Source: Clostridia bacterium (GTDB lineage: Bacteria > Bacillota > Clostridia > Oscillospirales > CAG-272). Taken from it: DNA of 45,002 nucleotides. The DNA is taken from assembly GCA_017382615.1 (NCBI GenBank), contig JAFNZX010000220.1, positions 1 through 45,002 on the forward strand. Direction: 5' to 3'. The position numbers and the translations under genes were made by a program. Shown piece after piece: positions 2,433-21,330 of this stretch. Numbering within the stretch: the first letter of the stretch is position 1; the number at the start of each line of letters is the position of its first letter. Below the pieces are notes generated by a model. The model saw nothing but the letters and a program-made list of their open reading frames with translations, was not told the DNA's origin and did not search any database.

Positions 2433-2434
2433 AC

Positions 2435-3931: not shown

Positions 3932-3950
3932 CCGTTTTCTTTATTCCGTT
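3918..3950. repeat. 14-bp tandem direct repeat (2.4 copies) spanning the stop codon of the TIR-LRR gene
   Basis: ccgttttctttatt occurs at 3918-3931 and again at 3932-3945, followed by ccgtt at 3946-3950. The stop codon (3941-3943) lies in copy 2. Confidence 0.9.
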
Positions 3951-5716: not shown

Positions 5717-5764
5717 GTTTTCCTCCAAGCCGCTCACATCTTATAAAATAATACCACATCTTAT

Positions 5765-6782: not shown

Positions 6783-6861
6783 CGTGTTTGTTCCTCCGTA
6801 ATGAAAAATAAATGTGTCCCAAGATACGCGCATAACTGCGAGATCTTGTCTTGATTTATTT

Positions 6862-6890
6862 ATTTTAGCACACTTTCCCAAAATCGTCAA
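6862..6890 (-). promoter_or_regulatory. SigA-type promoter for the 5964..6782 lipoprotein gene
   Basis: The minus strand reads TTGACG, a 17 nt spacer, then TAAAAT, with an extended -10 TG (gTGcTAAAAT). Confidence 0.6.
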
Positions 6891-7132: not shown

Positions 7133-9637
7133 ATGAAACGAAAATCAGCATTGATCCTTTCCTTATTGCTTGCGGTGTGCACGTTGGCTTGCTGTCAATC
7201 CGGCGATCCACCGCCTTCCCCCGACAGCACAACGACCACTCTTCCCGAACAGACACAAGCAGAGCTCACTGACGACAAAGAACAGCAAGGAGTGCCCATG
7301 GAAAACGTTACAACGTATCAAAATCCCCTGCTTGACTACCAAAGTGACCATGCGTGGCGCGGCTACGGCTTTGGAGATCCGTTCGTCATGCGCTACAACG
7401 GCACGTATTATTTGTACGTCAGCACCAAGGACGGCAGCGTAGGCATCAAGTGCTGGTCCTCGCCTGACCTTGTGAACTGGACGTACGAGGGACTGTGCTC
7501 GCAAGACCCTGTCACCAAAAGCGCATACGCCCCCGAGGTCTACTACTACAACGGTTATTTTTATATGTACACCTCACCTGCCGGTAACGGACACTACGTT
7601 TTGCGCAGCACCTATCCCACCAAGGATTTCAAGGTCGTAACAGATAATATGGGGATGTCCATCGACGGATCTGTCTTTATTGACAACGACGGAAAGTGGT
7701 ATTTCTACACTGCCGGGCACGGTGCTCTGAAGGTCTACGACATGGTCTCCCCCACGCAAATGCGCCGCGGCACAAGCCTTTCCTGCGCCACAGTCAACGG
7801 TGCGTGGACGGAGGGCGCAATGGTGGTTTATCACGATGGCTACTATTACCTCACTTATACAGGCAACCACGTGCTCAGCCCCTCCTACCGCATTCTTTAC
7901 GGTGTTTCGGACAGCTCTCCGCTCAATTTTGACAGTATGCCCGATCAAAACCCGCTTTTGATCAGCACCGCGGGCGATATTTTGGGCATTGGACACAGCT
8001 CAACCGTAAAGGGTCCCGATCTCGACAGCTATTATATCGTCTATCACGCCCTGCTTGATACAATGCCCAATCGCACCATGAACATTGACCGCATTGTGTT
8101 CAACGGCAAGAAAATGGAGATCGTCGGTCCCACCGTCACACCGCAGCAGGTGCCCGACATGCCCGACGTTTACCACCATTTCGCCCCCGGTTCTTCCCTA
8201 AAGGGTTGGTCCCTGATTGGCTCGCTGACTGCAGGCAGCGGTGGGCTATGCCTGACCGCGGACAGCATGCTGGTATGCAAAACACCCTTCTTGGGTGACT
8301 TTACTGCCGAATACAACGTTACCTCAATTGCACAGGGATGCTTGGCAGGCGCGCTCTTTGCATATACCGATGCAGAGAATTTCGGTGCTTGCTACTTCTC
8401 CCCCGATACGCAAAAGCTCATCATTGAGTTCACGGTAGCAGGAGAGACCACGCGCACCGAAGCAGATACCGTCCGCTCCTTCGGGGAGGATACGCGCTTT
8501 GACTGCCTGCAAGCCTTGCAGATTGAGCGAAGCGGCAGCACCTACACCTTTTATATGAACGACCGCCTTGTGTGCACGCTGGAAAACTCTGCCCTTGTCG
8601 GCGGTGCGATCGGCTATATCAGCAAGGGCGGTGAGGCATCCTTCGGCTTTATCGGCGGCACAGGTGCCGTGGGCGGCTACGGTGCTGCAGATCAGTTCAC
8701 AACCGTTTCGGACAAGGCAGGCTTTATCCCCGCTTATCAAGCCACAAACGCCCCCGAAACCCTTACTTCGGCACAAGGCGAGCGCGTCGTTCCCATGTAT
8801 GCGGACACTGCGCTTTGTTATCGCATTCTGGCAGCCGAGAGCGGCTCGTACGACCTTGCCCTGCTCTGCCATGACGTCAAGGGCGGCGCAGCAATCGAGC
8901 TGTACGTAGACGATAAATCCGTTGGCACGTACGCGCTTGACGGCTCTGACCAATACACCAACACTGCCGTTCTGCGCACGATTCCACTCTCAAAAGGACA
9001 ACACGTGATAACGATCAAGCTCACGTCAGGCAGCCTGCTGGCAGAAAGCCTTACGATTCGGAAAGGAGAAGCCGTCACGCAGTTCTCCCTGACCTTTGAA
9101 AATGACCTGCAAGCTCCCGCGTACCAAGACGGTGGCTGGGAGATCAAAAACGGCACACTGCGCACGTCGGACGGCAGTCGCTTCGGCAAGGTGTTGTACG
9201 GCTCACCTAACTGGGGAGATTACCAAGCGCAGGTCACTCTAACCCCCTCCTCTTCCCCCAACTGCGGACTATTGGTGCGCGCCACCAACCCGGGCAATCC
9301 CGCCTTTCTTGGCACACAGCCATCGCATAACGATGCGGTAACTGCAACGGACTGGGTGCAGGGCTACTTTGTGGGACTGACGGGCGAGGGCGTGATCCTT
9401 GGCAAGCAAGGATACGGATACACGGAGCTTGCCCGCGCCGACGGACAATTCCGCGCAGGAAAAGCGTATACGCTTAAGGTCATCTGTACCGGAGCACGCA
9501 TACAGGTTTACGTAGACGGTACACTGTACCTGGACTACACAGACCCCGACCCTTATATGCAGGGTATGGTAGGCATACGCACGCACAATTGCTTTGCCGC
9601 CTTTGACAACCTGCTCATCACCCCCGCCGGGCAATAA
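7133..9637 (+). CDS. secreted multidomain glycoside hydrolase family 43 protein (GH43 beta-propeller + ConA-like + CBM-like + DUF1080/3-keto-disaccharide-hydrolase-like domain)
   Basis: 834 aa with the signal peptide MKRKSALILSLLLAVCTLACC. GH43 blade motifs are present: GDPFVMRYNGTYYLYVS, APEVYYYNGYFYMYTS, DGSVFIDNDGKWYFY and TEGAMVVYHDGYYYLTYTG. The C-terminal WEIKNGTLRT...GLLVRATN...GYFVGL...YTLKVICTGARIQVYVDG...GMVGIRTHN resembles DUF1080. Confidence 0.85.
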   Translation: MKRKSALILSLLLAVCTLACCQSGDPPPSPDSTTTTLPEQTQAELTDDKEQQGVPMENVTTYQNPLLDYQSDHAWRGYGFGDPFVMRYNGTYYLYVSTKDGSVGIKCWSSPDLVNWTYEGLCSQDPVTKSAYAPEVYYYNGYFYMYTSPAGNGHYVLRSTYPTKDFKVVTDNMGMSIDGSVFIDNDGKWYFYTAGHGALKVYDMVSPTQMRRGTSLSCATVNGAWTEGAMVVYHDGYYYLTYTGNHVLSPSYRILYGVSDSSPLNFDSMPDQNPLLISTAGDILGIGHSSTVKGPDLDSYYIVYHALLDTMPNRTMNIDRIVFNGKKMEIVGPTVTPQQVPDMPDVYHHFAPGSSLKGWSLIGSLTAGSGGLCLTADSMLVCKTPFLGDFTAEYNVTSIAQGCLAGALFAYTDAENFGACYFSPDTQKLIIEFTVAGETTRTEADTVRSFGEDTRFDCLQALQIERSGSTYTFYMNDRLVCTLENSALVGGAIGYISKGGEASFGFIGGTGAVGGYGAADQFTTVSDKAGFIPAYQATNAPETLTSAQGERVVPMYADTALCYRILAAESGSYDLALLCHDVKGGAAIELYVDDKSVGTYALDGSDQYTNTAVLRTIPLSKGQHVITIKLTSGSLLAESLTIRKGEAVTQFSLTFENDLQAPAYQDGGWEIKNGTLRTSDGSRFGKVLYGSPNWGDYQAQVTLTPSSSPNCGLLVRATNPGNPAFLGTQPSHNDAVTATDWVQGYFVGLTGEGVILGKQGYGYTELARADGQFRAGKAYTLKVICTGARIQVYVDGTLYLDYTDPDPYMQGMVGIRTHNCFAAFDNLLITPAGQ

Positions 9638-9687: not shown

Positions 9688-11556
9688 ATGAAAAAAGTAT
9701 TGTCTATGCTTTTGCTTGCGCTGATGTGCGCGTCTCTGTTCGCATGCACGCCCGATCAGCCAATTGAGCAAGGCACGCAAGCACCGCAAACCGATCCCAC
9801 TGACGCAACGACCGACGCAACAACCGACGCCTCTACCGAGGAAGCAACCACACCCGGACAAGAGGAAACAACCGACGAGCCCGAGCCTCCCGCTCCCCAG
9901 CCCGTTGCACTGTACCAGTTAGCTCCCGAAAAGAACAGCCTGCTGCAATCCTACGTTATCAAGACCGCGAACGGCAAGCTGATCGTCATTGACGGCGGCG
10001 TTGACGGTACAGGCAAGGATCATCCTGCCTACATGCCCGCTGCACTGCGTGCCATTGCAGGCGTTGGCGAAGGCGATTACTTCGAGGTAGAGGCATGGTT
10101 CCTCTCCCACGCGCACAAGGATCACATGTACGAGCTTTCCAAGATGCTCTCGGATTACAGCGCAGACTCCAACTACAAGATCAACAACATCTATTTCGAT
10201 TTCCCCAACTTCGGCAGCGAGGAATACCCCGGCAACAATGCCGATATGGAGATCTCGAAGATCCGCGAGAACCTGAACAAGTACGGCGAGGTGATCGGTG
10301 CCGGTGCAAATTATTACGATCAGATCAACGGCGCGCTCATCAACAAAGAATCCGTTTCCAAGGGTCTGTCCCTGGAGATCGACGGTGTGCGCATTGACGT
10401 GCTGCAGACATGGGACGCAGCAGACGGCACCTCCAATATCAATGACACCTCTATCGTACTTCGCATGACCATTGGCGAGCAGAAGGTGCTCTTCCTCAAC
10501 GACCTGGGCGCAATCGGCGGCAGACGCCTGCTTGCAACCTACGGCGACGCACTCAAGAGTGACATCGTACAAATGGCGCACCACGGTCAGGGCGGCGTAA
10601 ACAAGGATGTATACGACGCCATCGACGCACAGGTACATCTGTGGCCCACGCCTATCTGGGTATGGAACAACGCAGAAGGCACTTATCAGATCGACGAGGT
10701 CAGAGAATGGCTGTACGGCAAGAACTTCTTGGAATCCGACGAATACGACATCGTCGCAAGCCTGTATCAAAGCTATCCCAAAAAGATTAACCGTGTCAAC
10801 GCATGGAGAGACGTTCTGGACGGCATGAAGATCGAGTTCCCCTACGTTCTTCCCGAGCGCATCATTGAAACCACCGAGGCTACTACTGCAGAGCCCATCG
10901 AGCCCGTTGAGCATAATTACGTCAAGGATGGTCTGGTTGCCTACTATTCCGGCACGCAGAGCACCCGCGGCGGTCATAATACAAGCTCCGACGTATGGGA
11001 GGATCTGGTTGGCGGTCACGATATGAAGATCACCAAAAACGACAGCAATTACTTCTCCGAGCAGGGCTTGCGCGCAAGCAACGCCAAGCACAACTTCCCC
11101 GATGCCATTGTAGAGACAGTCAACGGGCAGGCGTTTACCATCGAGCTTTTGTTTGGCGACTTTACCTCCATTGGTAGCAACTTCAACACCTTTATCAGCA
11201 GCGCAGACGACCATTTCGCACTCTTCCGCCGCAACGATGGGAACGTTCTGGAGCTCAAGACGTTGGGTAACGGACGTATCAAGATCCAGGGCGGACTTGA
11301 AAAACTGCAAAACACGCTGATCACTATTACCTACGCGCAGAGCGGAAAGTGCTGCATTTACGTAAACGGTGTACTCGCAGGAGAGATCAACACGGCACCC
11401 GGCTCTTTGAGCGCAGGCAACTTCTTTATCGGTCACTCCGATCCCGCGAAGGCATTTGATACCACCTATCGCTCTATCCGCTTCTACAACCGCGCCCTGA
11501 CGGCAGAAGAAGCAATGGCAAACGCCGTCACCGACGGTGTTGCAACAGCCAACTGA
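9688..11556 (+). CDS. lipoprotein with MBL-fold (ComEC-C-terminal-like) metallohydrolase domain fused to a LamG (Laminin_G_3) domain
   Basis: 622 aa. The signal peptide is MKKVLSMLLLALMCASLFAC, followed by a DATTDATTDASTEEATTP linker. MBL motifs are present: EAWFLSHAHKDHMYEL and QMAHHGQGG. The C-terminal LamG module runs from LVAYYSG...WEDLVGGHD to YRSIRFYNRALTAEEA. Confidence 0.75.
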   Translation: MKKVLSMLLLALMCASLFACTPDQPIEQGTQAPQTDPTDATTDATTDASTEEATTPGQEETTDEPEPPAPQPVALYQLAPEKNSLLQSYVIKTANGKLIVIDGGVDGTGKDHPAYMPAALRAIAGVGEGDYFEVEAWFLSHAHKDHMYELSKMLSDYSADSNYKINNIYFDFPNFGSEEYPGNNADMEISKIRENLNKYGEVIGAGANYYDQINGALINKESVSKGLSLEIDGVRIDVLQTWDAADGTSNINDTSIVLRMTIGEQKVLFLNDLGAIGGRRLLATYGDALKSDIVQMAHHGQGGVNKDVYDAIDAQVHLWPTPIWVWNNAEGTYQIDEVREWLYGKNFLESDEYDIVASLYQSYPKKINRVNAWRDVLDGMKIEFPYVLPERIIETTEATTAEPIEPVEHNYVKDGLVAYYSGTQSTRGGHNTSSDVWEDLVGGHDMKITKNDSNYFSEQGLRASNAKHNFPDAIVETVNGQAFTIELLFGDFTSIGSNFNTFISSADDHFALFRRNDGNVLELKTLGNGRIKIQGGLEKLQNTLITITYAQSGKCCIYVNGVLAGEINTAPGSLSAGNFFIGHSDPAKAFDTTYRSIRFYNRALTAEEAMANAVTDGVATAN

Positions 11557-11568
11557 ACACATACAAAC

Positions 11569-11595
11569 AGCCCCTGATGCGACGCATCAGGGGCT
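11569..11595. terminator. bidirectional terminator hairpin between convergent genes
   Basis: agcccctgatgc (11569-11580) pairs with gcatcaggggct (11584-11595). On the plus strand it is followed by ttctt. Confidence 0.7.
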
Positions 11596-11609: not shown

Positions 11610-13085
11610 TCATTCCAGGTCTTCCAATTTGGAGTTGAGCTTGGCAAGGCTCTTCTTCGCCTTGCTTCTCATTTTTTCATAGGAGGAGGACACGGTATTC
11701 TGCTTACTCTCCGCAATATCGCGCAGCGTCTGCAGCGGCTTTTCCAAGGAGTTGGTGTAGATCAAGCCCGGATCGACCTTGACGTTTGCAAAGATCAGAT
11801 CCAGCATCTCCCAAGCAACGGGATCGCTCATGTACTTACGCTTGACCGCGATTTCATAATAAGCAGGCTTGACGGTACGGGCGGATTCAGACGCCATAAC
11901 CTCAAGCGTTGCACCGAGCATTTCCAATCTGTTCTGCGCTGCAGAAGACGGAATGGCAAATACGGTAAACTGATCGTGCATCTGCGAGCGATAACCCTTT
12001 TGATCGGTGCTGTACTTGGGAATGGGCACGATACCGTATTGCTGCTTCATATTGCGCACGTCACCCTGCTCAACCGCCACCAGGCGCAGCGTAGTCATGG
12101 CGCACTCGCCCTTGGCAAAGAGATTGCGGATCTTATCCTGCTCCACATTGTCCGCCTCGGGAAGATACAGGTTCGTACCGCCGCAATCATAGTACAAATT
12201 CAGGATCTTATCCATCACGTCGGACAGCTGCGCAATATCCACCACGTATTCGTAATAGCCGTCGGCATCCTTTTCTACCACAGACAGATCGCACGATGCC
12301 CAATAGGGGTCGGTGCATATACCGGGGCAAGTGATCAATCCAAAGAAATCGCCCTCGTCCTTCTTTCCCGATCCGTTGGTATCGCGGTAAAAATTCTTAG
12401 CAAGGGATGCCTGATAATCCAGCGTCCATTCTTCATTGCTCACCGCCTCGTACAGATACGGCACGCTGCTGTTATCAAACTCGTCCTTGTTGAACAGCGT
12501 CACAAAGGTGAATCTGTACGTGGACAGCGCAATATCTCCCGTTGCAGTATACTGCTTGCCAAGAAAAGACATGCTCTCGTTGTATCCCTGCATCCAATAC
12601 GATTGATCCAGATCCAAATACGTCAGATTGGTCAGATCGTAAAACGTGCCTTCGGAGACCGTTGCCGTCACGGCATACGCCGAGGCTGCCAGCAGATCAT
12701 ACTCATCCGATCCCGCCTTGACCGCCCGCTTGATCTCCTCGATCGGCTTGTGCTGATTGGGATCGTCAATGGGGCAAGACACGATATTGACGCCAAGTCG
12801 GTCACTGATCGTCACGTTACGGTTGAACATAGCATCGTTGACCGGATCGGAATTTTGCTCCGGCACGGCAATTTCGTCTGCAGTCCAGCCAAACATGGAG
12901 CGATTGAGAACGGTGACGTCCTCCCCGTCATATTTCAGCTCCGCCGGAACACGGTCCAGCTGTACAGGGTCTGTGCTCTCCTCTGCAACGGTTGTATCGA
13001 CCGGTTGCTCCCCGGTTTCCGCACAGGAGGCAAACAAAGAAATCAAGGTGATACATACAAGGAATAACGCGCAAAGCTTTTTCAT
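11610..13085 (-). CDS. ABC-transporter extracellular solute-binding lipoprotein (large ~490 aa sugar-binding type), paralog A
   Basis: Track ORF 11610..13127, trimmed to MKKLCALFLVCITLISLFASC (ATG 13085..13083). It is clearly paralogous to 17196..18680 along its full length. The overall pattern fits family-1 SBPs (SDEYDL..., YWMQGYN..., GIVPIPKY). Confidence 0.75.
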   Translation of the reverse strand: MKKLCALFLVCITLISLFASCAETGEQPVDTTVAEESTDPVQLDRVPAELKYDGEDVTVLNRSMFGWTADEIAVPEQNSDPVNDAMFNRNVTISDRLGVNIVSCPIDDPNQHKPIEEIKRAVKAGSDEYDLLAASAYAVTATVSEGTFYDLTNLTYLDLDQSYWMQGYNESMSFLGKQYTATGDIALSTYRFTFVTLFNKDEFDNSSVPYLYEAVSNEEWTLDYQASLAKNFYRDTNGSGKKDEGDFFGLITCPGICTDPYWASCDLSVVEKDADGYYEYVVDIAQLSDVMDKILNLYYDCGGTNLYLPEADNVEQDKIRNLFAKGECAMTTLRLVAVEQGDVRNMKQQYGIVPIPKYSTDQKGYRSQMHDQFTVFAIPSSAAQNRLEMLGATLEVMASESARTVKPAYYEIAVKRKYMSDPVAWEMLDLIFANVKVDPGLIYTNSLEKPLQTLRDIAESKQNTVSSSYEKMRSKAKKSLAKLNSKLEDLE

Positions 13086-13117: not shown

Positions 13118-13147
13118 AGTATACCATATTCGGCGCAATCTTGTCAA
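13118..13147 (-). promoter_or_regulatory. SigA-type promoter for SBP paralog A
   Basis: The minus strand reads TTGACA (13147..13142), an 18 nt spacer, then TATACT (13123..13118). Confidence 0.6.
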
Positions 13148-13160
13148 CCGTGGCGCGATT

Positions 13161-13979
13161 TTATTGGTAAATGCACGCTTCCAGCAGCGCTTTGGCTTTC
13201 ATGATATCCGCAATCTGCTGCTCTCCGCTGATCTCGCGCTCAATGGTGATCGCACCGTCATATCCAAGCGTCTGCAAGCCCTTGATCAATGCAGGGAAAT
13301 TCACCATTCCCTCACCAAGCGGCGTTTCTTTCCCAAGCATTCTGCCGTCAGTCGGATAGCAGCCGTCCTTGGCGTGCACGTCGCGCACGTATTTGCCTAT
13401 CACGCCAAGCGCATCCACGGGATTTGCCTTTCCGTACAGGATCAGATTGGCGGGATCTAAATTGATGCCGAGATTGTCAAGCCCCACGTCATGCATGGTG
13501 CGCAGCAGCGTTACGGGTGTTTCCTGTCCCGTTTCAAACAGAAAATACTGTCCGTTCTGCGCGCAATGCCCGGCAACCGTGCGCACCGCCTGCACGACCT
13601 CTGCGTACAGCTCAGTATTCGGGTCCTCCGGGATAAATCCTACGTGCGTAGCGATCTGACCTGCCCCCAGCTTTGCGGCAAAATCCGAACCGCCAAGCAA
13701 TTCCTTGATGCGCGTTTCCCGGTACGCCTTGGGCACAAGACCCAAGGTCAAGGGTCCCTCGGTAAAATTCCAGCAAGCAGGCCCGCTCCAGCCGCACCAC
13801 GCAGTGGAAAGATGAATGCCATACCGCTGCAAAAGCGATTTTACCCAATGTGCTGTGTCGTCGGTCATCGCTTCGGTATATTGATAGTTCAACTGACACG
13901 ACGTAAATCCCAGCTCTGCCAGCTGCGCCAGCTTTGCCTCCAGGTGCGCATTCAGTCCGATAATTACACCAAGTTCCAT
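13161..13979 (-). CDS. sugar phosphate isomerase/epimerase (xylose-isomerase-like TIM barrel) 1
   Basis: 272 aa. Positions with a metal-ligand-like pattern are present: FLFETGQE, INLDPANL, DVHAKD and ITIERE. A GGGGAG RBS precedes the start. Confidence 0.8.
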   Translation of the reverse strand: MELGVIIGLNAHLEAKLAQLAELGFTSCQLNYQYTEAMTDDTAHWVKSLLQRYGIHLSTAWCGWSGPACWNFTEGPLTLGLVPKAYRETRIKELLGGSDFAAKLGAGQIATHVGFIPEDPNTELYAEVVQAVRTVAGHCAQNGQYFLFETGQETPVTLLRTMHDVGLDNLGINLDPANLILYGKANPVDALGVIGKYVRDVHAKDGCYPTDGRMLGKETPLGEGMVNFPALIKGLQTLGYDGAITIEREISGEQQIADIMKAKALLEACIYQ

Positions 13980-13981
13980 AA

Positions 13982-14899
13982 CTACTCCCCTTTTTTCAGT
14001 ATGTACTCACGATCGCGCAACAAGTTCTCTCGCAAGGAAACGCTGAGATTGTTCCAATAGAACGTTTCCAGCGAATATGCCCCCGCGTACCCGACGCGAT
14101 CCAATGCGTGCAGGCAGGCATCAAGATCCACCATACCCTCACCCAGCAGCGTATCGGTAATGTATCTGCCGTCACGAATCATATCCCAGCGGCGGCTTGC
14201 CGTTGTGCTTGTACGGTTCAGCTTATCATTTTCTATATGCAGATCCTTGAGGTGCACGTGCAGAATCTCTGCTGCATACCGCTCAAAGAATGCCGCGGGA
14301 TCACAGCCCACGTACAAGCTGTTTCCCGTATCGCCGCAAACGCCTACGCGATAGCCGCGCGCCTTCATGGCGTCGTAAAACAAGGAAAAGCCGTCCAATC
14401 CGTTGACGTAAAAGCCCTGCGGCTCGTACAGCACGGTCAGTCCGATACCGTTAGCATATGCTGCAACCTGTTCCGCACGCTCAAGCAGCGCGGGCAGAAG
14501 ATCCGCCACCGTTTGCGCCTTGCCGCACGGCGGCTCGTATCCGATCGTCAGCGTATGATGCAAAAAGGGCGAGCCCAATATTTTAGCATAATCCGCCGAT
14601 TTTTTTAAAACCTCAACTCCCGACAGGTTTTGCGCGGGTCCCAGCACGTCCGAAAGGATATTGATGCTGACGGAATAGCACGCACAACGCACACCGTGCG
14701 CGTCCATCTCTGCTCTTGTCCGTTGCGCAGCACCTGCATCGGCAAACAAAAACGTTGCCCCCGGACGGACTCCTTCTAATATTTCCGCAGCCCCGAACCC
14801 GCATCCACGCGCAAACCGTGCCGCCTCGGCAGCACTTTCCCTGCGCAAAATATCGGTAAAAAACGCATACATCGATAATTGCTCTGCCTTCATCATCAT
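13982..14899 (-). CDS. sugar phosphate isomerase/epimerase (xylose-isomerase-like TIM barrel) 2
   Basis: 305 aa with LYEPQ, CGDTGN, HVHLKD and YSLE motifs. It begins with three consecutive ATG codons (14899..14891). The start overlaps the upstream stop as ATGA. Confidence 0.8.
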   Translation of the reverse strand: MMMKAEQLSMYAFFTDILRRESAAEAARFARGCGFGAAEILEGVRPGATFLFADAGAAQRTRAEMDAHGVRCACYSVSINILSDVLGPAQNLSGVEVLKKSADYAKILGSPFLHHTLTIGYEPPCGKAQTVADLLPALLERAEQVAAYANGIGLTVLYEPQGFYVNGLDGFSLFYDAMKARGYRVGVCGDTGNSLYVGCDPAAFFERYAAEILHVHLKDLHIENDKLNRTSTTASRRWDMIRDGRYITDTLLGEGMVDLDACLHALDRVGYAGAYSLETFYWNNLSVSLRENLLRDREYILKKGE

Positions 14900-15795
14900 T
14901 CCTCAAAGCATCCGTATTCTGTCAGGACGCACTTTCCAAGCTCATACATATAGCGATCCGCCGCCAAGCGCAGGCTCAGCGGTGCTTTGGCAAGTCTGGA
15001 ATCCTTTGCAAACGGGCGCTTTTGCTCGGCTGTAGAAAAAATACCGCCCACCTCAAAGGTAAAATACCCCTCGTAGCCAATGTCCAGCAAGCCGTGCATA
15101 ACGGCATCCATGCTCATCGTGCCCAAAAACGGCAACAGATGCGCATCATGGTCACCGCGATTATCCTGTATATGCAACGCACGCACGTGGCTGCCAAGCA
15201 ATCGCAGCTCCTCGTCCTGCGGCATCTCCTGCAAATTGGCATGCCCTGCATCCCACACCGCGTGGAACAAAGGGTGATTGACGTATTCGATCAGCCCAAG
15301 CAGGTCGGTCGCATTGTCGATCCAGTATAGTCCCGGAACACTCATCTTATTAAAGTTTTCCACCAAAATATTGACGCCGTATTGCTCTGCGCGCTCCAAA
15401 AGCGGCATGAAAAACGCCTTGTTGGCATCAAAGGTCTGCTCTACGGTCAGCCCGTGTGCATAGCCCGAATGCACCACCAAATTCGGAATCCCCCATGCAC
15501 CGCAAGCATCCACGCAGCGCAGAGTGTCAGCCAAAAAGCTGCCGTCGGGATCGTTTAAGGGCGTACCCATGGGCGCGTGCGCCTGGATCAACCTCACGCC
15601 GATCTCCGCTGCCGCTGCATTGACCTGCGCAAAATACTCCTCGTAATGCTCGGAATACACGCCGTTACGGTGCTTATAGTCCATGCCGAAGTTATAATCC
15701 GCATATTGGAAGCCCGCTTCGCGCACATAGCGCAAGGCTTGGATCTGCGAATTCGTATATCCGCCAAAATCGCCCGTTGTCGTTGCTAATTTCAT
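14896..15795 (-). CDS. sugar phosphate isomerase/epimerase (xylose-isomerase-like TIM barrel) 3
   Basis: Track ORF 14896..15819, trimmed to MKLATTTGDF (ATG 15795..15793, ATGA overlap with the upstream stop). Motifs ILVENF, AVWDAGHA, ALHIQDN and FTFEV are present. Confidence 0.8.
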   Translation of the reverse strand: MKLATTTGDFGGYTNSQIQALRYVREAGFQYADYNFGMDYKHRNGVYSEHYEEYFAQVNAAAAEIGVRLIQAHAPMGTPLNDPDGSFLADTLRCVDACGAWGIPNLVVHSGYAHGLTVEQTFDANKAFFMPLLERAEQYGVNILVENFNKMSVPGLYWIDNATDLLGLIEYVNHPLFHAVWDAGHANLQEMPQDEELRLLGSHVRALHIQDNRGDHDAHLLPFLGTMSMDAVMHGLLDIGYEGYFTFEVGGIFSTAEQKRPFAKDSRLAKAPLSLRLAADRYMYELGKCVLTEYGCFEE

Positions 15796-17123
15796 GCTCC
15801 CTGCTCCTCTCCGCTGCACAAAGCAGCCGTTTCTTCCAAAATGCCCAGATCAAACGCCAATCTGGACAGCACGTACTTATCGCGTATGTCCTTGGTCGAC
15901 TTGAAGGTCATGGGCAATATCTCCGATGAAAGTCCCCACGCCTCGACCGTTTTGGGACAGCCGATCTTGTCAAGCAACGCTGCAATAAACGCAGCCGTTG
16001 GGATCTCCTCTTTCATAATCTCTGTCAGCACATCCCAATGTTCAATGATCCTCTCCAGCCGCTCGGCATGCTTTTCCACCGCATATTTTTGCTCCTTGGC
16101 ATCCAACGCGATCATATCGTCCGCTCCGTTCCCCAAGAACGCAGCCAGCTCTGCAAACCACGCCTGCTTGTCAAAGCCTTGCGCATACGCAAGCCCCTTT
16201 TCGCGGTCGGGAGAGATTTGTTGCATCCCTTCATATAATCTTGCAGCGATCAGCGTGCCCACAGCGCACTGTATGCCGTGCGTGGACACCTTTTCGCCAA
16301 ATTCCACGCCGCGCATATCCCACAAATGGGAAAAATAATGCTCCACGCCCGAAGCGGGACGCGACGTGCCCGCATAGCTCATGGCAGCACCCGCAGCCAC
16401 CAATCCTTCAAATACCGCCTGTACTGCAATCTCGTCGCGCTGCAACAGCCCGTCTGCGTTCTGCACGCACTTGGCAAGTGACTGTCTGATTGCGTCTGCT
16501 ACCGTTTCACAGTAATACTCACCCGTCACGATATGCGAAATGCGCCATTCCGCAATGCTGATATACTTAGCAAGCATATCGCCCAGGCCCGATACCAGCA
16601 TTTCCATGGGGGCATTCTTGAGAATATCCACGTCGCCAATGATCACGCCTGCACTCTTGGACGGGATCGATACCTTAAGTCCATTGCGCGTCATCGACGA
16701 GGTTGCCGATGCATATCCGTCCATGGACGGTGCTGTCGCAACGATCATATACGCCGCCCCCGACACACTTGCAAGTATTTTGGAGATATCCCCGATCACG
16801 CCCGAGCCTACCGCCAATACCAGATCGCATGCTCGGTCAAAATGCATGACGGCGGCGCCAACCGCTGCCTCATCGGGTTCAGGTGAATTCGCATATACAT
16901 ACTTGGCAAACGGGATCTCCTCCTTTGCAAGCAACGCTTGTACATGCTCGCCCGCAGCCGCGAAGGTATTGGCATCTGCCAACACGAAAACCTTTCTGTA
17001 GCCGTGGCGACGAATCTCCTCGGGCAGCTGCGCCAGCACGCCCTTGCCAACGATCACTCGCTCCAAGGCGCACTGATGTACTTTTCCGCATGCACAAATC
17101 TGCTCATTATGATTCAGATACAT
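15792..17123 (-). CDS. iron-containing alcohol dehydrogenase superfamily, sn-glycerol-1-phosphate dehydrogenase (AraM/EgsA)-like, 443 aa
   Basis: Track ORF 15792..17162, trimmed to MYLNHNE (ATG 17123..17121, GGAGGAG upstream). It contains KVFVLADANTF, LAVGSGVIGDISK, GLGDMLAKY and SGVEHYFSHLWDM, which resemble G1PDH/DHQS-like NAD and metal-binding motifs. Confidence 0.7.
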   Translation of the reverse strand: MYLNHNEQICACGKVHQCALERVIVGKGVLAQLPEEIRRHGYRKVFVLADANTFAAAGEHVQALLAKEEIPFAKYVYANSPEPDEAAVGAAVMHFDRACDLVLAVGSGVIGDISKILASVSGAAYMIVATAPSMDGYASATSSMTRNGLKVSIPSKSAGVIIGDVDILKNAPMEMLVSGLGDMLAKYISIAEWRISHIVTGEYYCETVADAIRQSLAKCVQNADGLLQRDEIAVQAVFEGLVAAGAAMSYAGTSRPASGVEHYFSHLWDMRGVEFGEKVSTHGIQCAVGTLIAARLYEGMQQISPDREKGLAYAQGFDKQAWFAELAAFLGNGADDMIALDAKEQKYAVEKHAERLERIIEHWDVLTEIMKEEIPTAAFIAALLDKIGCPKTVEAWGLSSEILPMTFKSTKDIRDKYVLSRLAFDLGILEETAALCSGEEQGA

Positions 17124-17152
17124 ATTTTTCTCCTCCAGTATTTCAGTCAAAA

Positions 17153-17178
17153 CCCCCGACACGCAACGGCATCGGGGG
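17153..17178 (-). terminator. terminator or attenuating hairpin after SBP paralog B, immediately upstream of the dehydrogenase gene
   Basis: The minus strand reads cccccgat-gccgttgcgtg-tcggggg followed by ttttgac. Confidence 0.6.
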
Positions 17179-17195
17179 TGCGGTATAGCCGCGGT

Positions 17196-18680
17196 TTATT
17201 CCTCCGCCAGCTTTTCCAGCTTTTTGTGTATCTTGGCAAGGCATCTGTCAACCGTGCCGCCCAGCTTTGCGCATTTGGAGGCAACCGAGTTCTTTTTGCT
17301 GTTGGAAATCTCACGCATCTTGTGGTGCGGACAGTTCATGGGCACAACGTAGGTCACCGCAGGATCAATTCTGACCTCGTCAAAGATCAGATCCAGCATA
17401 TCCCACGCAACGGGATCGCTCATATACTTACGCTTGAGCGCGATCTCGTAGTACGCAGGCTTAACCGATTTCTCCGATTCGGAAGCCATGACCTCCATGG
17501 CAGCACCGATCATTTGCAGCTTATCCTCTGCGGCAGATGCGGGAACGGCAAAAACCGTGAACTGGTCATGAATCATGGTACCGTAACCCTCTTGCGCTTG
17601 GTCGTACTTGGGAACGGGAGCAATGCCGTATTGGATCTCCATGGCGCGCACGTCGGGCTGCTCAACGGCTACAAGGCGAATGGTGTTCATGGCACATTCA
17701 CCTCTGACGAACATTTCACGGATCTCATCCTGCTCCACGTTCAAGGACATGACCGGGAACAGGTGCGTGCCGCCACAGTCGTAAAACAAATACAGCACCT
17801 TATCCATGACGTCGGAAAAGCGCGCAATGTCCAGCACGTACTCGTAATATCCCTCCGCATTCTTTTGCACGATGGGCAGGTGGCAGGATGCCCAGTACGC
17901 ATCCGTATTGATACCCGTGCAGGAAACGAAGCCGAAGAAATCCCCCTCGTCCTTTTTATTGTTTCCGTTCTTATCCTGATAAAAATCCTGCGCGAGTGCC
18001 GCCTGGTAATCCAGCGTCCACTCGTTATTGGCGATTGCCTCGTAAGGATACGGAACCTTTTTATCGTCAAACGCATCCTTGTTGAACATGGTCACGAATG
18101 CAAAGCGATACGTAGAAAGCGCGATTGCACCCGTAGCGGTATGCTGTGCACCGCCAAAGGACATAGCGTCGTTATACTCCTGCATCCAATAGCCCTGATC
18201 CAGATCCAGATACTCAAGCTGTGCAAGATTGTAGAATGTGCCATCCAGAGCGGCGGGAGTGGTCACGTAAACGGCGGCTGCCACCATATCGTACTCGTCC
18301 GATCCCGACTTGACAACGCGTTTGATGGTATCGATAGGCACGTTTTCATCCGGATTGTCAATGGGCGAAGAAACAACATTGACGTTCAGACGATCGGTCA
18401 CGGCAATATTTCTGTTGAACATAGCGTCGTTGACGGGCTCGGAATTGAGCTCGGGAACGGCAACCTCGTCCCACGTCCAGCCCATCAGGGCACGGTTCAG
18501 AATGACAATATCCTCCCCGTTATATTGCAAATCCTCGGGAATATTGTCAAGATGCGCAGGCTCGGTGCTCTCATTCTCCTGTGAGGCACTCTCCACCGGC
18601 GTCTGCTGCTCCTCCGCACAGGCAAGCAGCGCAACAGCCAAGGTTGCATACAACAAAAGTACAGCAATCAGTTTTTTCAT
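17196..18680 (-). CDS. ABC-transporter extracellular solute-binding lipoprotein, paralog B
   Basis: 494 aa with the signal MKKLIAVLLLYATLAVALLAC. It aligns with 11610..13085 throughout, for example NGEDIVILNRALMGWTWDEVAVPELNSEPVNDAMFNRN against DGEDVTVLNRSMFGWTADEIAVPEQNSDPVNDAMFNRN. Confidence 0.75.
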   Translation of the reverse strand: MKKLIAVLLLYATLAVALLACAEEQQTPVESASQENESTEPAHLDNIPEDLQYNGEDIVILNRALMGWTWDEVAVPELNSEPVNDAMFNRNIAVTDRLNVNVVSSPIDNPDENVPIDTIKRVVKSGSDEYDMVAAAVYVTTPAALDGTFYNLAQLEYLDLDQGYWMQEYNDAMSFGGAQHTATGAIALSTYRFAFVTMFNKDAFDDKKVPYPYEAIANNEWTLDYQAALAQDFYQDKNGNNKKDEGDFFGFVSCTGINTDAYWASCHLPIVQKNAEGYYEYVLDIARFSDVMDKVLYLFYDCGGTHLFPVMSLNVEQDEIREMFVRGECAMNTIRLVAVEQPDVRAMEIQYGIAPVPKYDQAQEGYGTMIHDQFTVFAVPASAAEDKLQMIGAAMEVMASESEKSVKPAYYEIALKRKYMSDPVAWDMLDLIFDEVRIDPAVTYVVPMNCPHHKMREISNSKKNSVASKCAKLGGTVDRCLAKIHKKLEKLAEE

Positions 18681-18732: not shown

Positions 18733-18762
18733 AGTATAGCATACCGTTATCTGCATTGTCAA
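18733..18762 (-). promoter_or_regulatory. SigA-type promoter for SBP paralog B (and probably the downstream operon)
   Basis: The minus strand reads TTGACA (18762..18757), an 18 nt spacer, then TATACT (18738..18733). Confidence 0.6.
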
Positions 18763-18988: not shown

Positions 18989-21316
18989 ATGAAAAAAAGC
19001 ATACTTTGCGTCATACTGGCTGTGCTGATGGTTTTGCCCCTGGCAGCCTGCACACCAAGCACCACCGAGCCCCCAACCGACACCGAAATCACGTCATCCA
19101 TTGATACGACGGATACTGAGCCGAGCGAGGAAAGCTCTGCCGAGCAGACCACGCAGGAGGCGCAGACCGAGCCCCCCTTGGAGCTTGACGTGCCCGCCTA
19201 CGAGGATATCGGGCTTTCCTCCATTCTCCCGGGCATTGATAACAGCGTCACCCTGAACTACAATTTTGCCGATTACAAATACAGCAAGCTGCGTTCTGAC
19301 AACAAGCTGGTCTTTACCTCCAACAAGGATTACGTGGTAGACAAGGGCGGCTTGACGCTGACGGCGGACGGCTGGAACAGCGTGGGCTTTGCGCATACAC
19401 TCAAGGAAGCCTATACCGCCAAGACACATATCACCAACCGCGGTGCTGAGAACAACGTGCGCTCCATCATGTTCGGCTGCCGCGTCACGCGCTCCAACCA
19501 CTTGTACATTGACAGCGGACTGTGGTTCACCTTCTCCGAAAACGCAGTCTATGCTCACGTCAAAAACGGCTTTACCAAGCTGATCGGAAATGAATTCCCC
19601 TTCAACGCCAAGGACGGCTTGGACGTGACCATCAAGGACGACGGCACAAATATTGAATGCTACGTCAACGATGTGCTCGTTGCCAAGGCGGTAGTCGAGC
19701 AGGAATGCCTTGTGCTCTATGATGCAGAGGGTGCTGAGGTAGGTCGCACGCCCGATCTTGCCCGCATTGCACACGGTGATACCTTAGGATACGTGCGCAC
19801 CATGTCCCACTTTGCGGATTCCACCACCAAATCCATGAGCCTTGTGACGGGCACCGTCATCCCCTACGCCCCCAAGGACACCATCACCGAGCTCAAAGCG
19901 GGATATTCCTATCTGCTCTCGGACAAAACGCAGATCAAAACGCAATACCCCATCACCCTGCACGACGGCGTGACGTTGCTGGACGTGCGCGCCGCTGCTG
20001 ACCTCTTCGGTTTTGCCTGCACTATCTCCGAGGACGGCACGCAAGCTACGCTGACCCGCGACAACGCAACGCTGACCTATACCGTAGGTACAGCCGCAGT
20101 AGATTTCAACGGCACAGCATACGCCTGCCCCACCACGACTTCGCGCGGCGGCAATATTCTGATCTCGGTTGACTATCTGGCACGCTGGATGGGCTACACC
20201 GTCACTTTGGAAGAGAGCTCGGTTTACGTAAGTGCCACCGCTGATACACTGACCGACGCACGCAAACAGGAAATAGCTGACCGCTATGCACTTTACGCCG
20301 ACGTCATTTACAACTACGACGACGTGGAGATCGAGCAGACCGGCGTTGGCAAATACGAGCAAACGCCCTATGAGGATCGCCTTGTGGGCATTGCCTACTC
20401 CACCTGGCTGTGCACCAAGATCATTACCTGGGGCAAAAACACCTGGGACACCCCGCTTTACGGCAACTACTACTCCGATGACCGCGACATGATCGCCAAG
20501 CACGCAGAGCTTTTGCGTGACGCAGGCGTGGACTTCATCTTTATCGACTGGACCAACAACACCACCTACGATCCCGCAACTATGCGAGAGTCCCGTTCCG
20601 ATTTCCGCATGATCGAGGAAGCAACCGACCTTGTCTTTGAGATATGGTCTACGATTGAGGGTGCACCCAAGATCTGCATTTTCGCAGGTCCCGGACATTC
20701 CGGCTATGATAACGTCAAAAACGGCAAACATCAGAAGAAGGTAGACCAAATCTATTCCTCTTACGTAGAAAAATATCCCGATCAGTATTTCCACTACCAG
20801 GGCAAGCCCCTGCTTATGTGCTACGGCGCAACGCCCAACCAGTACGGTGCGCGTCCCAAGTGGACGGACGACCGCTTTACCATTCGATGGGCAACCGGCT
20901 ACGTGGGTCAGCAGGACGGGCTTTATAATCCCAAAACCATGGCGACCCGCAACCAATGGTGGAGCTGGGAGGAGAGAGGTCTGCAGCCTTACTCCGTATA
21001 TGACAACCGCGTGGAATGCGTGACCTGCACTGCAGCCAGCCGTGCTCAGGGTTCTGAAGGTGACAGCGGCTACATTCCCGCTTATGGCAGAGAAAACGGT
21101 CTGACGCTCAAAAAGCAGTTCCAGCGTGCAAACGATCTGGGCGCGGGCATGGTCATTCTGATCTCCTGGAACGAATGGACCACGGGCGAGCAGCCCTCCC
21201 CCGAGGTCTCCAAGGACCTTGAGCCCTCCGTGGTTCACGGCACGTTCTATTACGACCTGCTTTGCGAGCAGATCAAAAAATTCAAGGGCAAGATCAGCAC
21301 CGACGCAGCAGAATAA
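18989..21316 (+). CDS. secreted lipoprotein: ConA-like domain + copper-amine-oxidase-N-terminal-like domain + GH99/WbsX-like TIM-barrel putative glycoside hydrolase domain
   Basis: 775 aa with the canonical lipobox MKKSILCVILAVLMVLPLAAC. The middle segment ITLHDGVTLLDVRAAADLFGF...ISVDYLARWMGYTV resembles a Cu_amine_oxidN1-type stalk domain. The C-terminal ~325 aa contain YYSDDRDMIAKHAELLRDAGVDFIFIDWTNN and ILISWNEWTTGEQ, which follow GH99/GH71/WbsX-like patterns. Confidence 0.65.
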   Translation: MKKSILCVILAVLMVLPLAACTPSTTEPPTDTEITSSIDTTDTEPSEESSAEQTTQEAQTEPPLELDVPAYEDIGLSSILPGIDNSVTLNYNFADYKYSKLRSDNKLVFTSNKDYVVDKGGLTLTADGWNSVGFAHTLKEAYTAKTHITNRGAENNVRSIMFGCRVTRSNHLYIDSGLWFTFSENAVYAHVKNGFTKLIGNEFPFNAKDGLDVTIKDDGTNIECYVNDVLVAKAVVEQECLVLYDAEGAEVGRTPDLARIAHGDTLGYVRTMSHFADSTTKSMSLVTGTVIPYAPKDTITELKAGYSYLLSDKTQIKTQYPITLHDGVTLLDVRAAADLFGFACTISEDGTQATLTRDNATLTYTVGTAAVDFNGTAYACPTTTSRGGNILISVDYLARWMGYTVTLEESSVYVSATADTLTDARKQEIADRYALYADVIYNYDDVEIEQTGVGKYEQTPYEDRLVGIAYSTWLCTKIITWGKNTWDTPLYGNYYSDDRDMIAKHAELLRDAGVDFIFIDWTNNTTYDPATMRESRSDFRMIEEATDLVFEIWSTIEGAPKICIFAGPGHSGYDNVKNGKHQKKVDQIYSSYVEKYPDQYFHYQGKPLLMCYGATPNQYGARPKWTDDRFTIRWATGYVGQQDGLYNPKTMATRNQWWSWEERGLQPYSVYDNRVECVTCTAASRAQGSEGDSGYIPAYGRENGLTLKKQFQRANDLGAGMVILISWNEWTTGEQPSPEVSKDLEPSVVHGTFYYDLLCEQIKKFKGKISTDAAE

Positions 21317-21330
21317 GGAGGATGGCGAGC

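Follow-up and report, generated by a model that had tools for sequence, protein, structure and literature searches.

The window analyzed here, positions 1-45,002 of contig JAFNZX010000220.1 of an uncultured gut member of the Clostridia (Oscillospirales, CAG-272; assembly GCA_017382615.1), carries on its minus strand, between positions 13161 and 17123, a compact cassette of four genes that code for a dehydrogenase resembling sn-glycerol-1-phosphate dehydrogenases (G1PDHs) and for three triosephosphate isomerase (TIM) barrel proteins, termed here TIM1, TIM2 and TIM3. The cassette is best described as a module of the dehydrogenase and TIM1 fused to a second module of TIM2 and TIM3. A sequence-only reading of the same DNA had proposed that the dehydrogenase oxidizes a glycoside or an anhydrosugar and that the three barrels, acting as a trio, process the resulting keto sugar. 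This model is weakened by the modularity of the block, the metal site of TIM1 and the genomic context of the dehydrogenase family, and the block is now less suggestive of a keto-sugar trio than of a possible route for glycans linked to glycerol phosphate. As judged by profile and structure comparisons, each of the four proteins falls in a known superfamily and none in a characterized family, and no matching system was found in the literature and databases searched. Under the reading that we tentatively favor, and which we regard as possible rather than probable, TIM1 would be a phosphoesterase that feeds sn-glycerol-1-phosphate (G1P) to the dehydrogenase, TIM2 and TIM3 would handle a sugar, and a surface lipoprotein combining a family 43 glycoside hydrolase (GH43) with a DUF1080 module would, together with two substrate-binding proteins (SBPs), supply the substrate.

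Organization and modularity of the cassette

The coordinates and junctions of the four coupled genes are as the sequence-only reading had given them. The dehydrogenase gene (15792-17123, minus strand; 443 amino acids) begins at an ATG preceded by a GGAGGAG ribosome-binding site; its open reading frame (ORF) can be extended to a GTG at 17162, and its homologs are 440-443 residues long. It is followed on the same minus strand by the genes for TIM1 (14896-15795; 299 amino acids), TIM2 (13982-14899; 305 amino acids) and TIM3 (13161-13979; 272 amino acids). ATGA overlaps join the dehydrogenase gene to that of TIM1 (15792-15795) and the latter to that of TIM2 (14896-14899), and 2 nucleotides separate the TAG stop of TIM2 from the ATG of TIM3. 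None of the four proteins has a signal peptide. The Pfam family Fe-ADH_2 (PF13685) is recovered with residues 25-172 of the first protein at 1e-29, which bears out its earlier description as related to iron-dependent alcohol dehydrogenases and G1PDHs. All three barrels recover AP_endonuc_2, the family of xylose-isomerase-like TIM barrels (8e-29 for TIM1, 3e-23 for TIM2 and 6e-31 for TIM3), but they are strongly diverged from one another, their best pairwise BLASTP alignments being only local (E=1e-3, 1.3 and 1.6e-6).

In blastn searches the cassette appears as one continuous block (13171-17129 of the window) that aligns to four independent contigs with DNA identities of 68-93%; the alignments have the same edges as the cassette, and the flanks are unaligned or align elsewhere. 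The four-gene block was found as a unit in at least five different genomic contexts. Its full gene order is kept in metagenomic contigs, here cited as numbered loci, whose dehydrogenases are 93% (L081), 78% (L082/83), 78% (L084-86) and 64-65% (L093/94) identical to that of the window, and the flanks vary among them, with one or two SBP genes, an AraC gene, GH36 and differing GH43 genes. Short metagenome contigs with a TIM2 of at least 65% identity are fragments of the same block. The full cassette is limited to close relatives (TIM2 at least 63% and dehydrogenase at least 64% identical); hence the expectation that relatives would conserve the arrangement is borne out in these, with differing flanks, and fails outside this narrow clade. 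We surveyed the wider dehydrogenase family in 80 loci of GTDB species representatives (L001-L080; dehydrogenase 51-71% identical). No close trio of barrels lies beside the dehydrogenase in these 80 species-level genomes, and a more sensitive scan of the loci with hidden Markov models detected only TIM1-like neighbors.

The two modules also occur apart. One locus (L158) has the order orf308 / GH43-DUF1080 - dehydrogenase (70%) - TIM1 (78%) and is devoid of TIM2 and TIM3, whereas pairs of TIM3-like and TIM2-like genes without the dehydrogenase and TIM1 are found in L099, L127 and L149. Single genes are encountered too: TIM1 orthologs of 72-75% identity stand alone between genes for the GTPase YchF and a TrmB-like methyltransferase or beside a beta-lactamase gene, and TIM2 at 48-52% identity stands alone near genes for extracytoplasmic function sigma factors. 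The ychF-TIM1-trmB loci (L087, 7855-10616; L091, 7868-10595; L092) present a housekeeping-type context unlike that of the cassette. The idea that the three barrels form a functional trio is thus not sustained by their distribution. The families differ greatly in size, with more than 6,449 matches for the dehydrogenase, 1,168 for TIM1 and 179 cluster representatives at E<=1e-30 for TIM3, and TIM2 is rare, having 89 homologs at E<=1e-5 among 5.8 billion proteins.

The dehydrogenase and TIM1

The product of 15792-17123 is a putative sn-glycerol-1-phosphate:NAD(P)+ oxidoreductase of the AraM/EgsA-like type within the dehydroquinate synthase (DHQS)-like superfamily, and is predicted to be cytoplasmic. 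Its best NCBIfam model by far is the G1PDH equivalog NF002022 (183.3 bits, against 63.8 bits for GldA), and its top matches in the PDB are the G1PDHs 9h4x, 5fb3 and 4rgq, of which the 414-residue bacterial enzyme 9h4x is the best solved relative (4e-42) and the archaeal G1PDHs come next. The motifs GLGD182, SRPASGVEH262YFSH266 and TH282G align with the same motifs in these three structures; their GD, SRPASGxEHxxSH and HG elements, which would hold the Asp/His/His metal ligands and the SRPxSGxEH loop common to archaeal and bacterial G1PDHs and whose residues we take to bind metal or phosphate, are invariant in 25 family members (59-93% identity). As these motifs are invariant across the family, the protein of the window very probably does what the large Clostridial family does. 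An N-terminal CxCGxxH motif (C10, C12, H16) is likewise invariant in the Clostridial family, as are C99, C205 and C219. The solved G1PDHs do not align before residue 15 of the dehydrogenase, and this N-terminal motif may represent an extra metal or structural site.

Contextual analysis of the 80 loci points to the kind of substrate that this family might use. In 25 of them a same-strand gene for a known or putative phosphoesterase abuts that of the dehydrogenase, namely a HAD-IIA phosphatase (10 loci), a glycerophosphodiester phosphodiesterase (GDPD; 7 loci) or a TIM1-like barrel (8 loci), and a PHP phosphoesterase gene is divergently adjacent in four further loci. DeoR regulators, present in 12 loci, are the commonest neighbors of the family, and GpsA-like sn-glycerol-3-phosphate (G3P) dehydrogenases are found in five. 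Three types of locus recur: type A (DeoR / dehydrogenase - GDPD or TIM1-like barrel - FAD_oxidored, PF12831), type B (MATE/GpsA-like G3P dehydrogenase / dehydrogenase - HAD-IIA phosphatase) and type C (zinc-dependent alcohol dehydrogenase - PHP / dehydrogenase). Examples of family loci are L065 (7189-11842), L077 (3913-8874), L013 (6842-10097) and L009 (5392-9287). In the DeoR-type loci the slot beside the dehydrogenase holds either a GDPD gene (L021, L056, L065) or that of a TIM1-like barrel (L014, L023, L063, L077), so that the two look interchangeable. With a phosphoesterase, glycerol-phosphate enzymes and a DeoR-type regulator as the theme of the family, a glycerol-phosphate-type substrate is favored over a glycoside. 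This speaks against the role of glycoside oxidase that the sequence-only reading had given to the dehydrogenase; a genuine G1PDH inactive on sugars, which that reading had named as fatal to its model, is favored by these contexts, though not proven.

The metal site of TIM1 points in the same direction. Nine of its residues are invariant in 27 homologs (H73, H109, E146, D182, H185, H208, D217, H219 and E248), and they match the set that forms the trinuclear site of Escherichia coli endonuclease IV, Nfo (H69, H109, E145, D179, H182, H216, D229, H231 and E261). The comparison was made with a MAFFT alignment and by inspection of motifs, with an Nfo sequence checked to be identical to that of 1QTW; eight of the nine ligands are in register, and H73 lies two residues off the ninth column. 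TIM1-like barrels encoded directly beside the dehydrogenase in other species have the same nine ligands. The earlier observation that each barrel retains an E..D..H..E set holds (E146/D182/H208/E248 in TIM1, E159/D190/H216/E278 in TIM2 and E149/D175/H202/E247 in TIM3) but describes TIM1 incompletely; TIM2 and TIM3, on the other hand, are devoid of three or four of the nine Nfo ligands and keep an isomerase-type H/E/D/H/E set. The best solved relative of TIM1 is MJ1311 of Methanocaldococcus jannaschii, named a D-tagatose 3-epimerase-like protein (3wqo; 7e-16 in a profile search, over residues 72-260), in which the H, H, E, D-x-x-H, H, D-x-H and E motifs match. The paper describing that structure reportedly notes nine conserved residues, a fold closest to that of ketose 3-epimerases and no DNA-binding groove. 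The model of D-psicose 3-epimerases (PsicseEpim) gives 25.7 bits, the cut-off being 300; the E-D-H-E residues of these enzymes are present, but TIM1 has five extra metal-ligand residues, and the alignment with the epimerases has a gap at its D-x-H segment. By these measures the barrel does not class with the D-tagatose or D-psicose 3-epimerases, ketose epimerization being an alternative offered by the sequence-only reading.

We regard TIM1 as a putative metallo-phosphoesterase because of this ligand set, the occurrence of GDPD and TIM1-like genes in the same slot of type A loci, and the precedent of CbiR, a small-molecule phosphodiesterase of cobamide remodeling that is a metal-dependent barrel of the AP endonuclease 2 superfamily (PMC7733943). 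The CbiR model itself yields 34.5 bits with TIM1 and 24.9 bits with TIM2, its cut-off being 105. The linkage of TIM1-like genes to that of the dehydrogenase extends to eight other, distant species, in which the two genes overlap or nearly abut and occur in both orders. A DNA-repair endonuclease IV is a less likely identity for TIM1, given this repeated coupling.

We consider it unlikely that the four genes share no pathway and are independent genes or modules that descent has kept together in a narrow clade, one of them perhaps a housekeeping enzyme akin to MJ1311 and endonuclease IV. Each part does occur separately, the complete cassette is found in close relatives only, at the identities given above, and MJ1311 has been listed as an endonuclease IV homolog of the archaeon M. 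jannaschii (PMC2770678). However, each of the three junctions has overlapping or nearly contiguous start and stop codons, the four genes change contexts as one block, and the adjacency of dehydrogenase and TIM1-like genes recurs in the eight distant species irrespective of gene order.

TIM2, TIM3 and the glycan-degrading neighborhood

The second module shows a different kind of site. The invariant residues of TIM2 (H114/H115, E159, D190-x-x-N193, H214-x-H216-x-K-D and E278) and the conserved residues of TIM3 (H112, E149, D175-x-x-N178, H202-x-K-D and E247) follow the pattern H...E...D-x-x-N...H-x-K-D...E that is found in the single-metal isomerases, epimerases and dehydratases of the superfamily. 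The nearest solved relative of TIM2 is the isomerase Art22 (7e-20; TM-score 0.73, for a model with a mean predicted local distance difference test score (pLDDT) of 92.9), which stems from the cluster for aurantinin, whose major product, aurantinin B, bears a 3'-keto sugar (PMC8302727). TIM3 is closest to the uncharacterized 3tva (5e-44 in a single-sequence search, 5e-91 in a profile search), followed by MJ1311, the 2-hydroxy-3-keto-glucal hydratase AtHYD (8ro4, 9e-12), Art22, AsbF and UlaE; weak matches are made to the 3-keto-glucoside 4-epimerase YcjR (2e-4) and to 8tcd/8tcs (about 1e-3). AtHYD is also matched by TIM2 (8ro4, 8e-3; TM-score 0.70-0.72) and not by TIM1. Uncharacterized proteins or epimerases nonetheless score as well as or better than keto-sugar enzymes against the barrels, and searches of the PDB with single sequences and profiles, together with Foldseek searches with the TIM1 and TIM2 models, do not discriminate among lyase, hydratase, epimerase and dehydratase. 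No barrel falls in a characterized clade of NCBIfam, all scores being far under the cut-offs; a clean placement in such clades, which the sequence-only reading had named as fatal to its model, was thus not seen. Catabolism of the inositol type, which it had named as another alternative, is disfavored by the tiny scores with IolE and IolI (family model: 44 bits for TIM2 against a cut-off of 290 and 20.9 bits for TIM3; PDB matches of TIM2 and TIM3 to IolE/IolI at 1e-6 to 6e-3 only) and by the absence of iol genes nearby.

It is also unlikely, in our view, that the cassette interconverts polyol and ketose phosphates, with the dehydrogenase oxidizing G1P or a phosphate of erythritol, arabinitol or ribitol, and the barrels epimerizing or isomerizing the ketose phosphate in the manner of EryC and UlaE. 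The barrels weakly match models of sugar-phosphate epimerases (UlaE/L-ribulose-5-phosphate 3-epimerase and fructoselysine 3-epimerase), DeoR regulators, the commonest neighbors of the dehydrogenase family, typically sense sugar phosphates, and pentoses are released by GH43 enzymes. Yet neither a kinase nor a phosphotransferase system gene lies in or beside any version of the cassette, the nine-ligand site of TIM1 is unlike that of a known epimerase, and every model score is far below its cut-off.

A keto-sugar route in the original sense, in which the DHQS-like enzyme would replace a Gfo/Idh/MocA oxidase in the oxidation of an imported glycoside or anhydrosugar and the barrels would act as lyase, hydratase and isomerase, is quite unlikely, although it would, if real, extend the oxidize-then-eliminate pathways for glycosides to a new oxidoreductase superfamily. 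The nearest characterized relatives of TIM2 and TIM3 do include the keto-sugar-linked Art22, AtHYD and, more weakly, YcjR and 8tcd/8tcs, so that the proposed tie of the barrels to such chemistry survives for these two. The likeness is at the level of the superfamily (13-19% identity, TM-score about 0.7). Beyond this, genes for glycoside hydrolases and SBPs abound at the locus, and a preprint predicts that such pathways have varied architectures in Gram-positive bacteria (10.1101/2024.03.25.586180). Distant homologs of TIM2 (29-36% identity) are encoded directly downstream of Gfo/Idh/MocA genes in L142 (8851-10693) and L147 (8845-10708), and another is encoded in L157 (8201-14445) beside a sulfatase, a creatininase-fold protein, a ceramidase-like protein and a GH4 enzyme; these contexts are a hint that the TIM2 family at large may act on keto sugars. 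Against such a route for the cassette as a whole, the dehydrogenase shares invariant motifs with homologs encoded beside GDPD, GpsA, HAD-IIA and DeoR genes; it travels with TIM1 (in L158 and eight species) and not with TIM2 and TIM3, and TIM1 has the trinuclear ligand set of endonuclease IV. Moreover, no PDB profile match to DgpB/C was obtained at E<=1, and the only matches that may be to levoglucosan enzymes, 8tcd/8tcs, were made by TIM3 alone. In sum, keto-sugar chemistry is plausible for the TIM2/TIM3 pair, as far as sequence relationships can tell.

The favored reading, with a glycerol-phosphate ester as substrate, further draws on the genes around the cassette. The gene for the GH43-DUF1080 protein (7133-9637, plus strand; 834 amino acids) codes for a surface lipoprotein with a LAVCTLACC lipoprotein signal, in which a linker joins the GH43 domain to a DUF1080 module (PF06439, 3keto-disac_hyd) at residues 665-829. 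Its orthologs (54-64% identity) are found near the cassette or the dehydrogenase-TIM1 pair in L082/L083 and L158, in differing arrangements: the gene lies 3.5 kb off in the window, is convergent and immediately downstream in L082/83, and is immediately upstream on the same strand in L158. Divergent from it in the window is orf308 (5964-6890, minus strand), which has no Pfam family and whose orthologs (53-69% identity) again lie beside the GH43 ortholog in L082/L083 and L158; other GH43 genes flank the cassette of L093/94. The cassette is bracketed by genes for two paralogous lipoproteins of the SBP type that are 60% identical, SBPup (17196-18680, minus strand; 494 amino acids), with an LLAC lipobox and no Pfam or NCBIfam family, and SBPdn (11610-13085, minus strand; 491 amino acids), with a weak SBP_bac_1 match. 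Homologs of SBPup (63-65% identity) precede the cassette in L084-L086, and orthologs of SBPdn follow it in L081 (97% identity) and L084/L085 (75-77%). Lipoprotein signals are thus present in the GH43-DUF1080 protein, the SBPs and two neighboring proteins, and the GH43-DUF1080 lipoprotein probably supplies the imported substrate. Its place in a secreted enzyme makes the DUF1080 module a more probable binding or accessory element than a lyase of 3-keto-glycosides in the cytoplasm.

The layout of the minus strand suggests how the cassette might be transcribed. A promoter-like site (TTGACA-18-TATACT with TG; 18733-18762, minus strand), identified by its match to 11 of 12 consensus positions, lies 5' of the SBPup gene and is the probable start of the transcript that enters the cassette. 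Between the SBPup and dehydrogenase genes there is an 11-bp GC-rich hairpin followed by UUUU (17152-17179, minus strand; minimum free energy -26.6 kcal/mol, z = -2.4) that looks like a leaky terminator or a transcript-stabilizing hairpin and leaves no room for a promoter before the ribosome-binding site of the dehydrogenase. Since only this hairpin and the ribosome-binding site separate the two genes, the cassette would be read through from the SBPup promoter. A second, near-identical promoter-like site (13118-13147, minus strand) lies directly 3' of TIM3 and 5' of SBPdn, and its position indicates that SBPdn starts at the ATG at 13085 (MKKLCALF...) and not at the start of the longest ORF at 13127. 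A 12-bp hairpin between convergent genes (11569-11595), which resembles a bidirectional terminator on both strands, closes the minus-strand unit. The Rfam scan of the window returned no riboswitch or other RNA family.

It is very unlikely that the cassette is anabolic or redox-related, with dihydroxyacetone phosphate (DHAP) reduced to G1P, which would serve an envelope product or be dephosphorylated by TIM1 or a HAD-IIA enzyme to glycerol as a sink for NADH, and with the barrels only loosely related: passages of PMC13400652 and PMC5059525 cite literature for a biosynthetic role of Bacillus subtilis AraM, and type B loci pair the dehydrogenase with gpsA and a HAD-IIA phosphatase gene, but in the present clade the genes are co-oriented with SBP genes, and their repeated linkage to secreted GH43 enzymes and AraC-type regulators is the pattern of a catabolic locus.

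The wider window also codes for several glycoside hydrolases (GH43, GH99-like, two GH36-like, GH38, GH3 and GH78), several of which are lipoproteins. Two GDPD genes (1608-2522, minus strand; 41156-41920, plus strand, between the GH3 and GH78 genes) fit a glycerol-phosphate theme, though they do not adjoin the cassette. The flanking plus-strand gene at 9688-11556 codes for a lipoprotein in which a metallo-beta-lactamase-fold (ComEC-like) domain is fused to a LamG/concanavalin domain; the plus-strand stretch 18989-22335 on the other side codes for a 775-residue lipoprotein with Cu_amine_oxidN1 and a weak GH99-like region and, after it, holds a second GH99-like ORF. Neither lipoprotein receives a family assignment at cut-off. 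A possible defense or signaling gene (3941-5737, minus strand) codes for 598 residues with an N-terminal TIR_2 domain (weak ThsB_TIR) and BspA-type leucine-rich repeats, and a TIR-NPHP3_N protein is encoded near the cassette of L093. An ORF with an RHS repeat at the window edge (44251-44712, minus strand) is probably the end of a larger gene for a toxin or wall-associated protein.

The Gfo/Idh/MocA gene at 26888-28183 and the DUF1080 module at the C-terminus of the GH43 protein, both of which the sequence-only reading had located correctly, had been taken by it as nearby building blocks of a 3-keto-glycoside route. The module belongs to a secreted lipoprotein, as said above; the gene lies 9.7 kb off in another transcription unit, with divergent genes in between, and is unlikely to be a missing oxidase. 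It codes for 431 amino acids, and the weak GH109 match at the C-terminus of its L093 ortholog (93%) suggests a GH109-type glycosidase. This L093 gene (17876-18909) is 93% identical in protein and 84% in DNA to that of the window, whereas the L093 cassette is 63-71% identical in protein and 68.5% in DNA to the cassette studied here; the discordance suggests cassette exchange, or paralogous cassettes in one lineage.

A proposed pathway and its relation to known systems

The pathway that we favor, in which all catalytic assignments and the substrate are deduced from homology and context, might proceed as follows. The GH43-DUF1080 lipoprotein would release a glycan fragment bearing glycerol phosphate outside the cell, and the paralogous SBPs would capture it. 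In the cytoplasm, the cassette would be expressed from the promoter of the upstream SBP gene; TIM1, with its trinuclear site of the endonuclease IV/MJ1311 type, would hydrolyze the glycerol phosphoester as a functional analog of the GDPD or HAD-IIA enzymes of other loci, and the AraM-type dehydrogenase would oxidize the freed G1P to DHAP with NAD(P)+. The single-metal barrels TIM2 and TIM3 would convert the sugar part, possibly a keto sugar, of the same compound. Glycerophosphorylated glycans or teichoic-acid-like material are candidate substrates.

Several observations weigh against this proposal. The dehydrogenase falls below the cut-off of NF002022 (183.3 against 413 bits), no phosphoesterase gene neighbors it in 55 of the 80 loci, and annotation in this family may mislead, one haloarchaeal protein with a G1PDH annotation being in fact a glycolaldehyde reductase (PMC9700705). 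For TIM1, there was no match to the Nfo family model of NCBIfam at E<=0.01 and none of its profile to an endonuclease IV chain of the PDB at E<=1, and hhalign of the profile with E. coli Nfo gave a probability of 1%; the nearest Foldseek relatives of its model are ketose 3-epimerases, YcjR and UlaE (TM-score about 0.7), endonuclease IV is not among the top 50, and the model, of pLDDT 86 overall, drops below 50 in the D-x-H loop. Its stand-alone orthologs (72-75%) fit a general housekeeping role equally well. Finally, the SBPs fit no known family, the window contains no permease or ATPase genes and hence no permease of the ATP-binding cassette type, and the role suggested for TIM2 and TIM3 is generic.

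A more far-reaching version of this proposal is somewhat unlikely: the dehydrogenase and a barrel akin to MJ1311 and endonuclease IV would constitute an unrecognized salvage system for sn-glycero-1-phosphoryl esters in which the barrel replaces a GDPD, and which in the present clade is extended by TIM2 and TIM3 for glycerophospho-glycan fragments released by the surface GH43-DUF1080 protein. Lipoteichoic acid and archaeal lipids are built on a G1P backbone, and possible sources would be lipoteichoic acid, glycerophosphorylated glycans and archaeal lipid head groups. To our knowledge, there is next to no description of the catabolism of G1P-type esters in gut bacteria, what AraM-like genes do within carbohydrate operons has been puzzling since their discovery, and the MJ1311 family has a structure with an endonuclease IV metal site and no function. 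If correct, such a system would provide a first function for the MJ1311 family and explain the presence of G1PDH genes in arabinan-type operons.

The broader lead may be more useful than the cassette itself: AraM-like dehydrogenases are repeatedly paired with apparently interchangeable phosphoesterases, among them, putatively, an MJ1311-type barrel. Thousands of AraM-like genes in Clostridia would thus be tied to three interchangeable kinds of phosphoesterase, and the version found in one clade to a surface GH43 enzyme and two rare sugar-converting barrels. The pattern bears on the turnover of G1P and lipoteichoic acid (PMC7086022), on the puzzling occurrence of araM within carbohydrate operons and on the MJ1311 family, an orphan so far.

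Among known systems, those acting on 3-keto-glycosides (the Alistipes and Bacteroides AL/BT systems, AtHYD of Agrobacterium tumefaciens, LgdA/B/C and DgpA/B/C) share with the window the occurrence of barrels annotated as sugar phosphate isomerases beside a dehydrogenase in a glycan locus, the place of AtHYD among the nearest characterized relatives of TIM2 and TIM3, and a DUF1080 module in the neighborhood. However, their oxidoreductase is always of the Gfo/Idh/MocA type, whereas that of the window is of the Fe-ADH_2 type and is genomically tied to TIM1, which has a differing metal site; the DUF1080 module sits in a secreted GH43 protein, and no Gfo/Idh/MocA gene is part of the cassette in any context examined. 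Unlike CbiR, the barrels are not accompanied by cobamide genes in the window. TIM1 is not a member of the Nfo family by sequence, as judged by NCBIfam models and PDB profile matches; with MJ1311, its best solved relative, it shares the same trinuclear-site motifs, and as MJ1311 is without a known function none can be transferred.

The proposed division of labor has a closer parallel in the pairing of a GDPD (GlpQ/UgpQ) with a G3P dehydrogenase, in which the phosphodiesterase frees glycerol phosphate and the dehydrogenase makes DHAP, as is suggested here for TIM1 and its partner. GDPD genes indeed fill the TIM1-like slot beside the dehydrogenase in seven of the 80 species. The esterase in the window has an unrelated fold, and the dehydrogenase is of the type specific for the opposite enantiomer, G1P; GlpQ itself requires sn-glycero-3-phosphoryl ends and shows no action on intact sn-glycerol-1-phosphate lipoteichoic acid (PMC7086022).

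The araL-araM pair of B. subtilis offers the last comparison, and passages of PMC13400652 and PMC5059525 cite the G1PDH activity of AraM. The partner of the dehydrogenase in the window differs from that of AraM in being a TIM barrel with endonuclease-IV-type ligands, and it is accompanied by two more barrels and not by araABD; the dehydrogenase, besides scoring under the G1PDH cut-off, is about 50 residues longer than AraM and has the conserved N-terminal CxCGxxH. AraM is a Ni2+-dependent sn-glycerol-1-phosphate dehydrogenase and AraL a HAD-IIA phosphatase, and their genes reportedly lie together in the arabinan/arabinose operon araABDLMNPQ-abfA. In the window, too, the gene for an AraM-type dehydrogenase lies next to that of a putative phosphoesterase in a locus that codes for an arabinofuranosidase-type hydrolase and an oligosaccharide SBP, and the very pairing of the dehydrogenase with a HAD-IIA phosphatase recurs in 10 of the 80 loci of its family.

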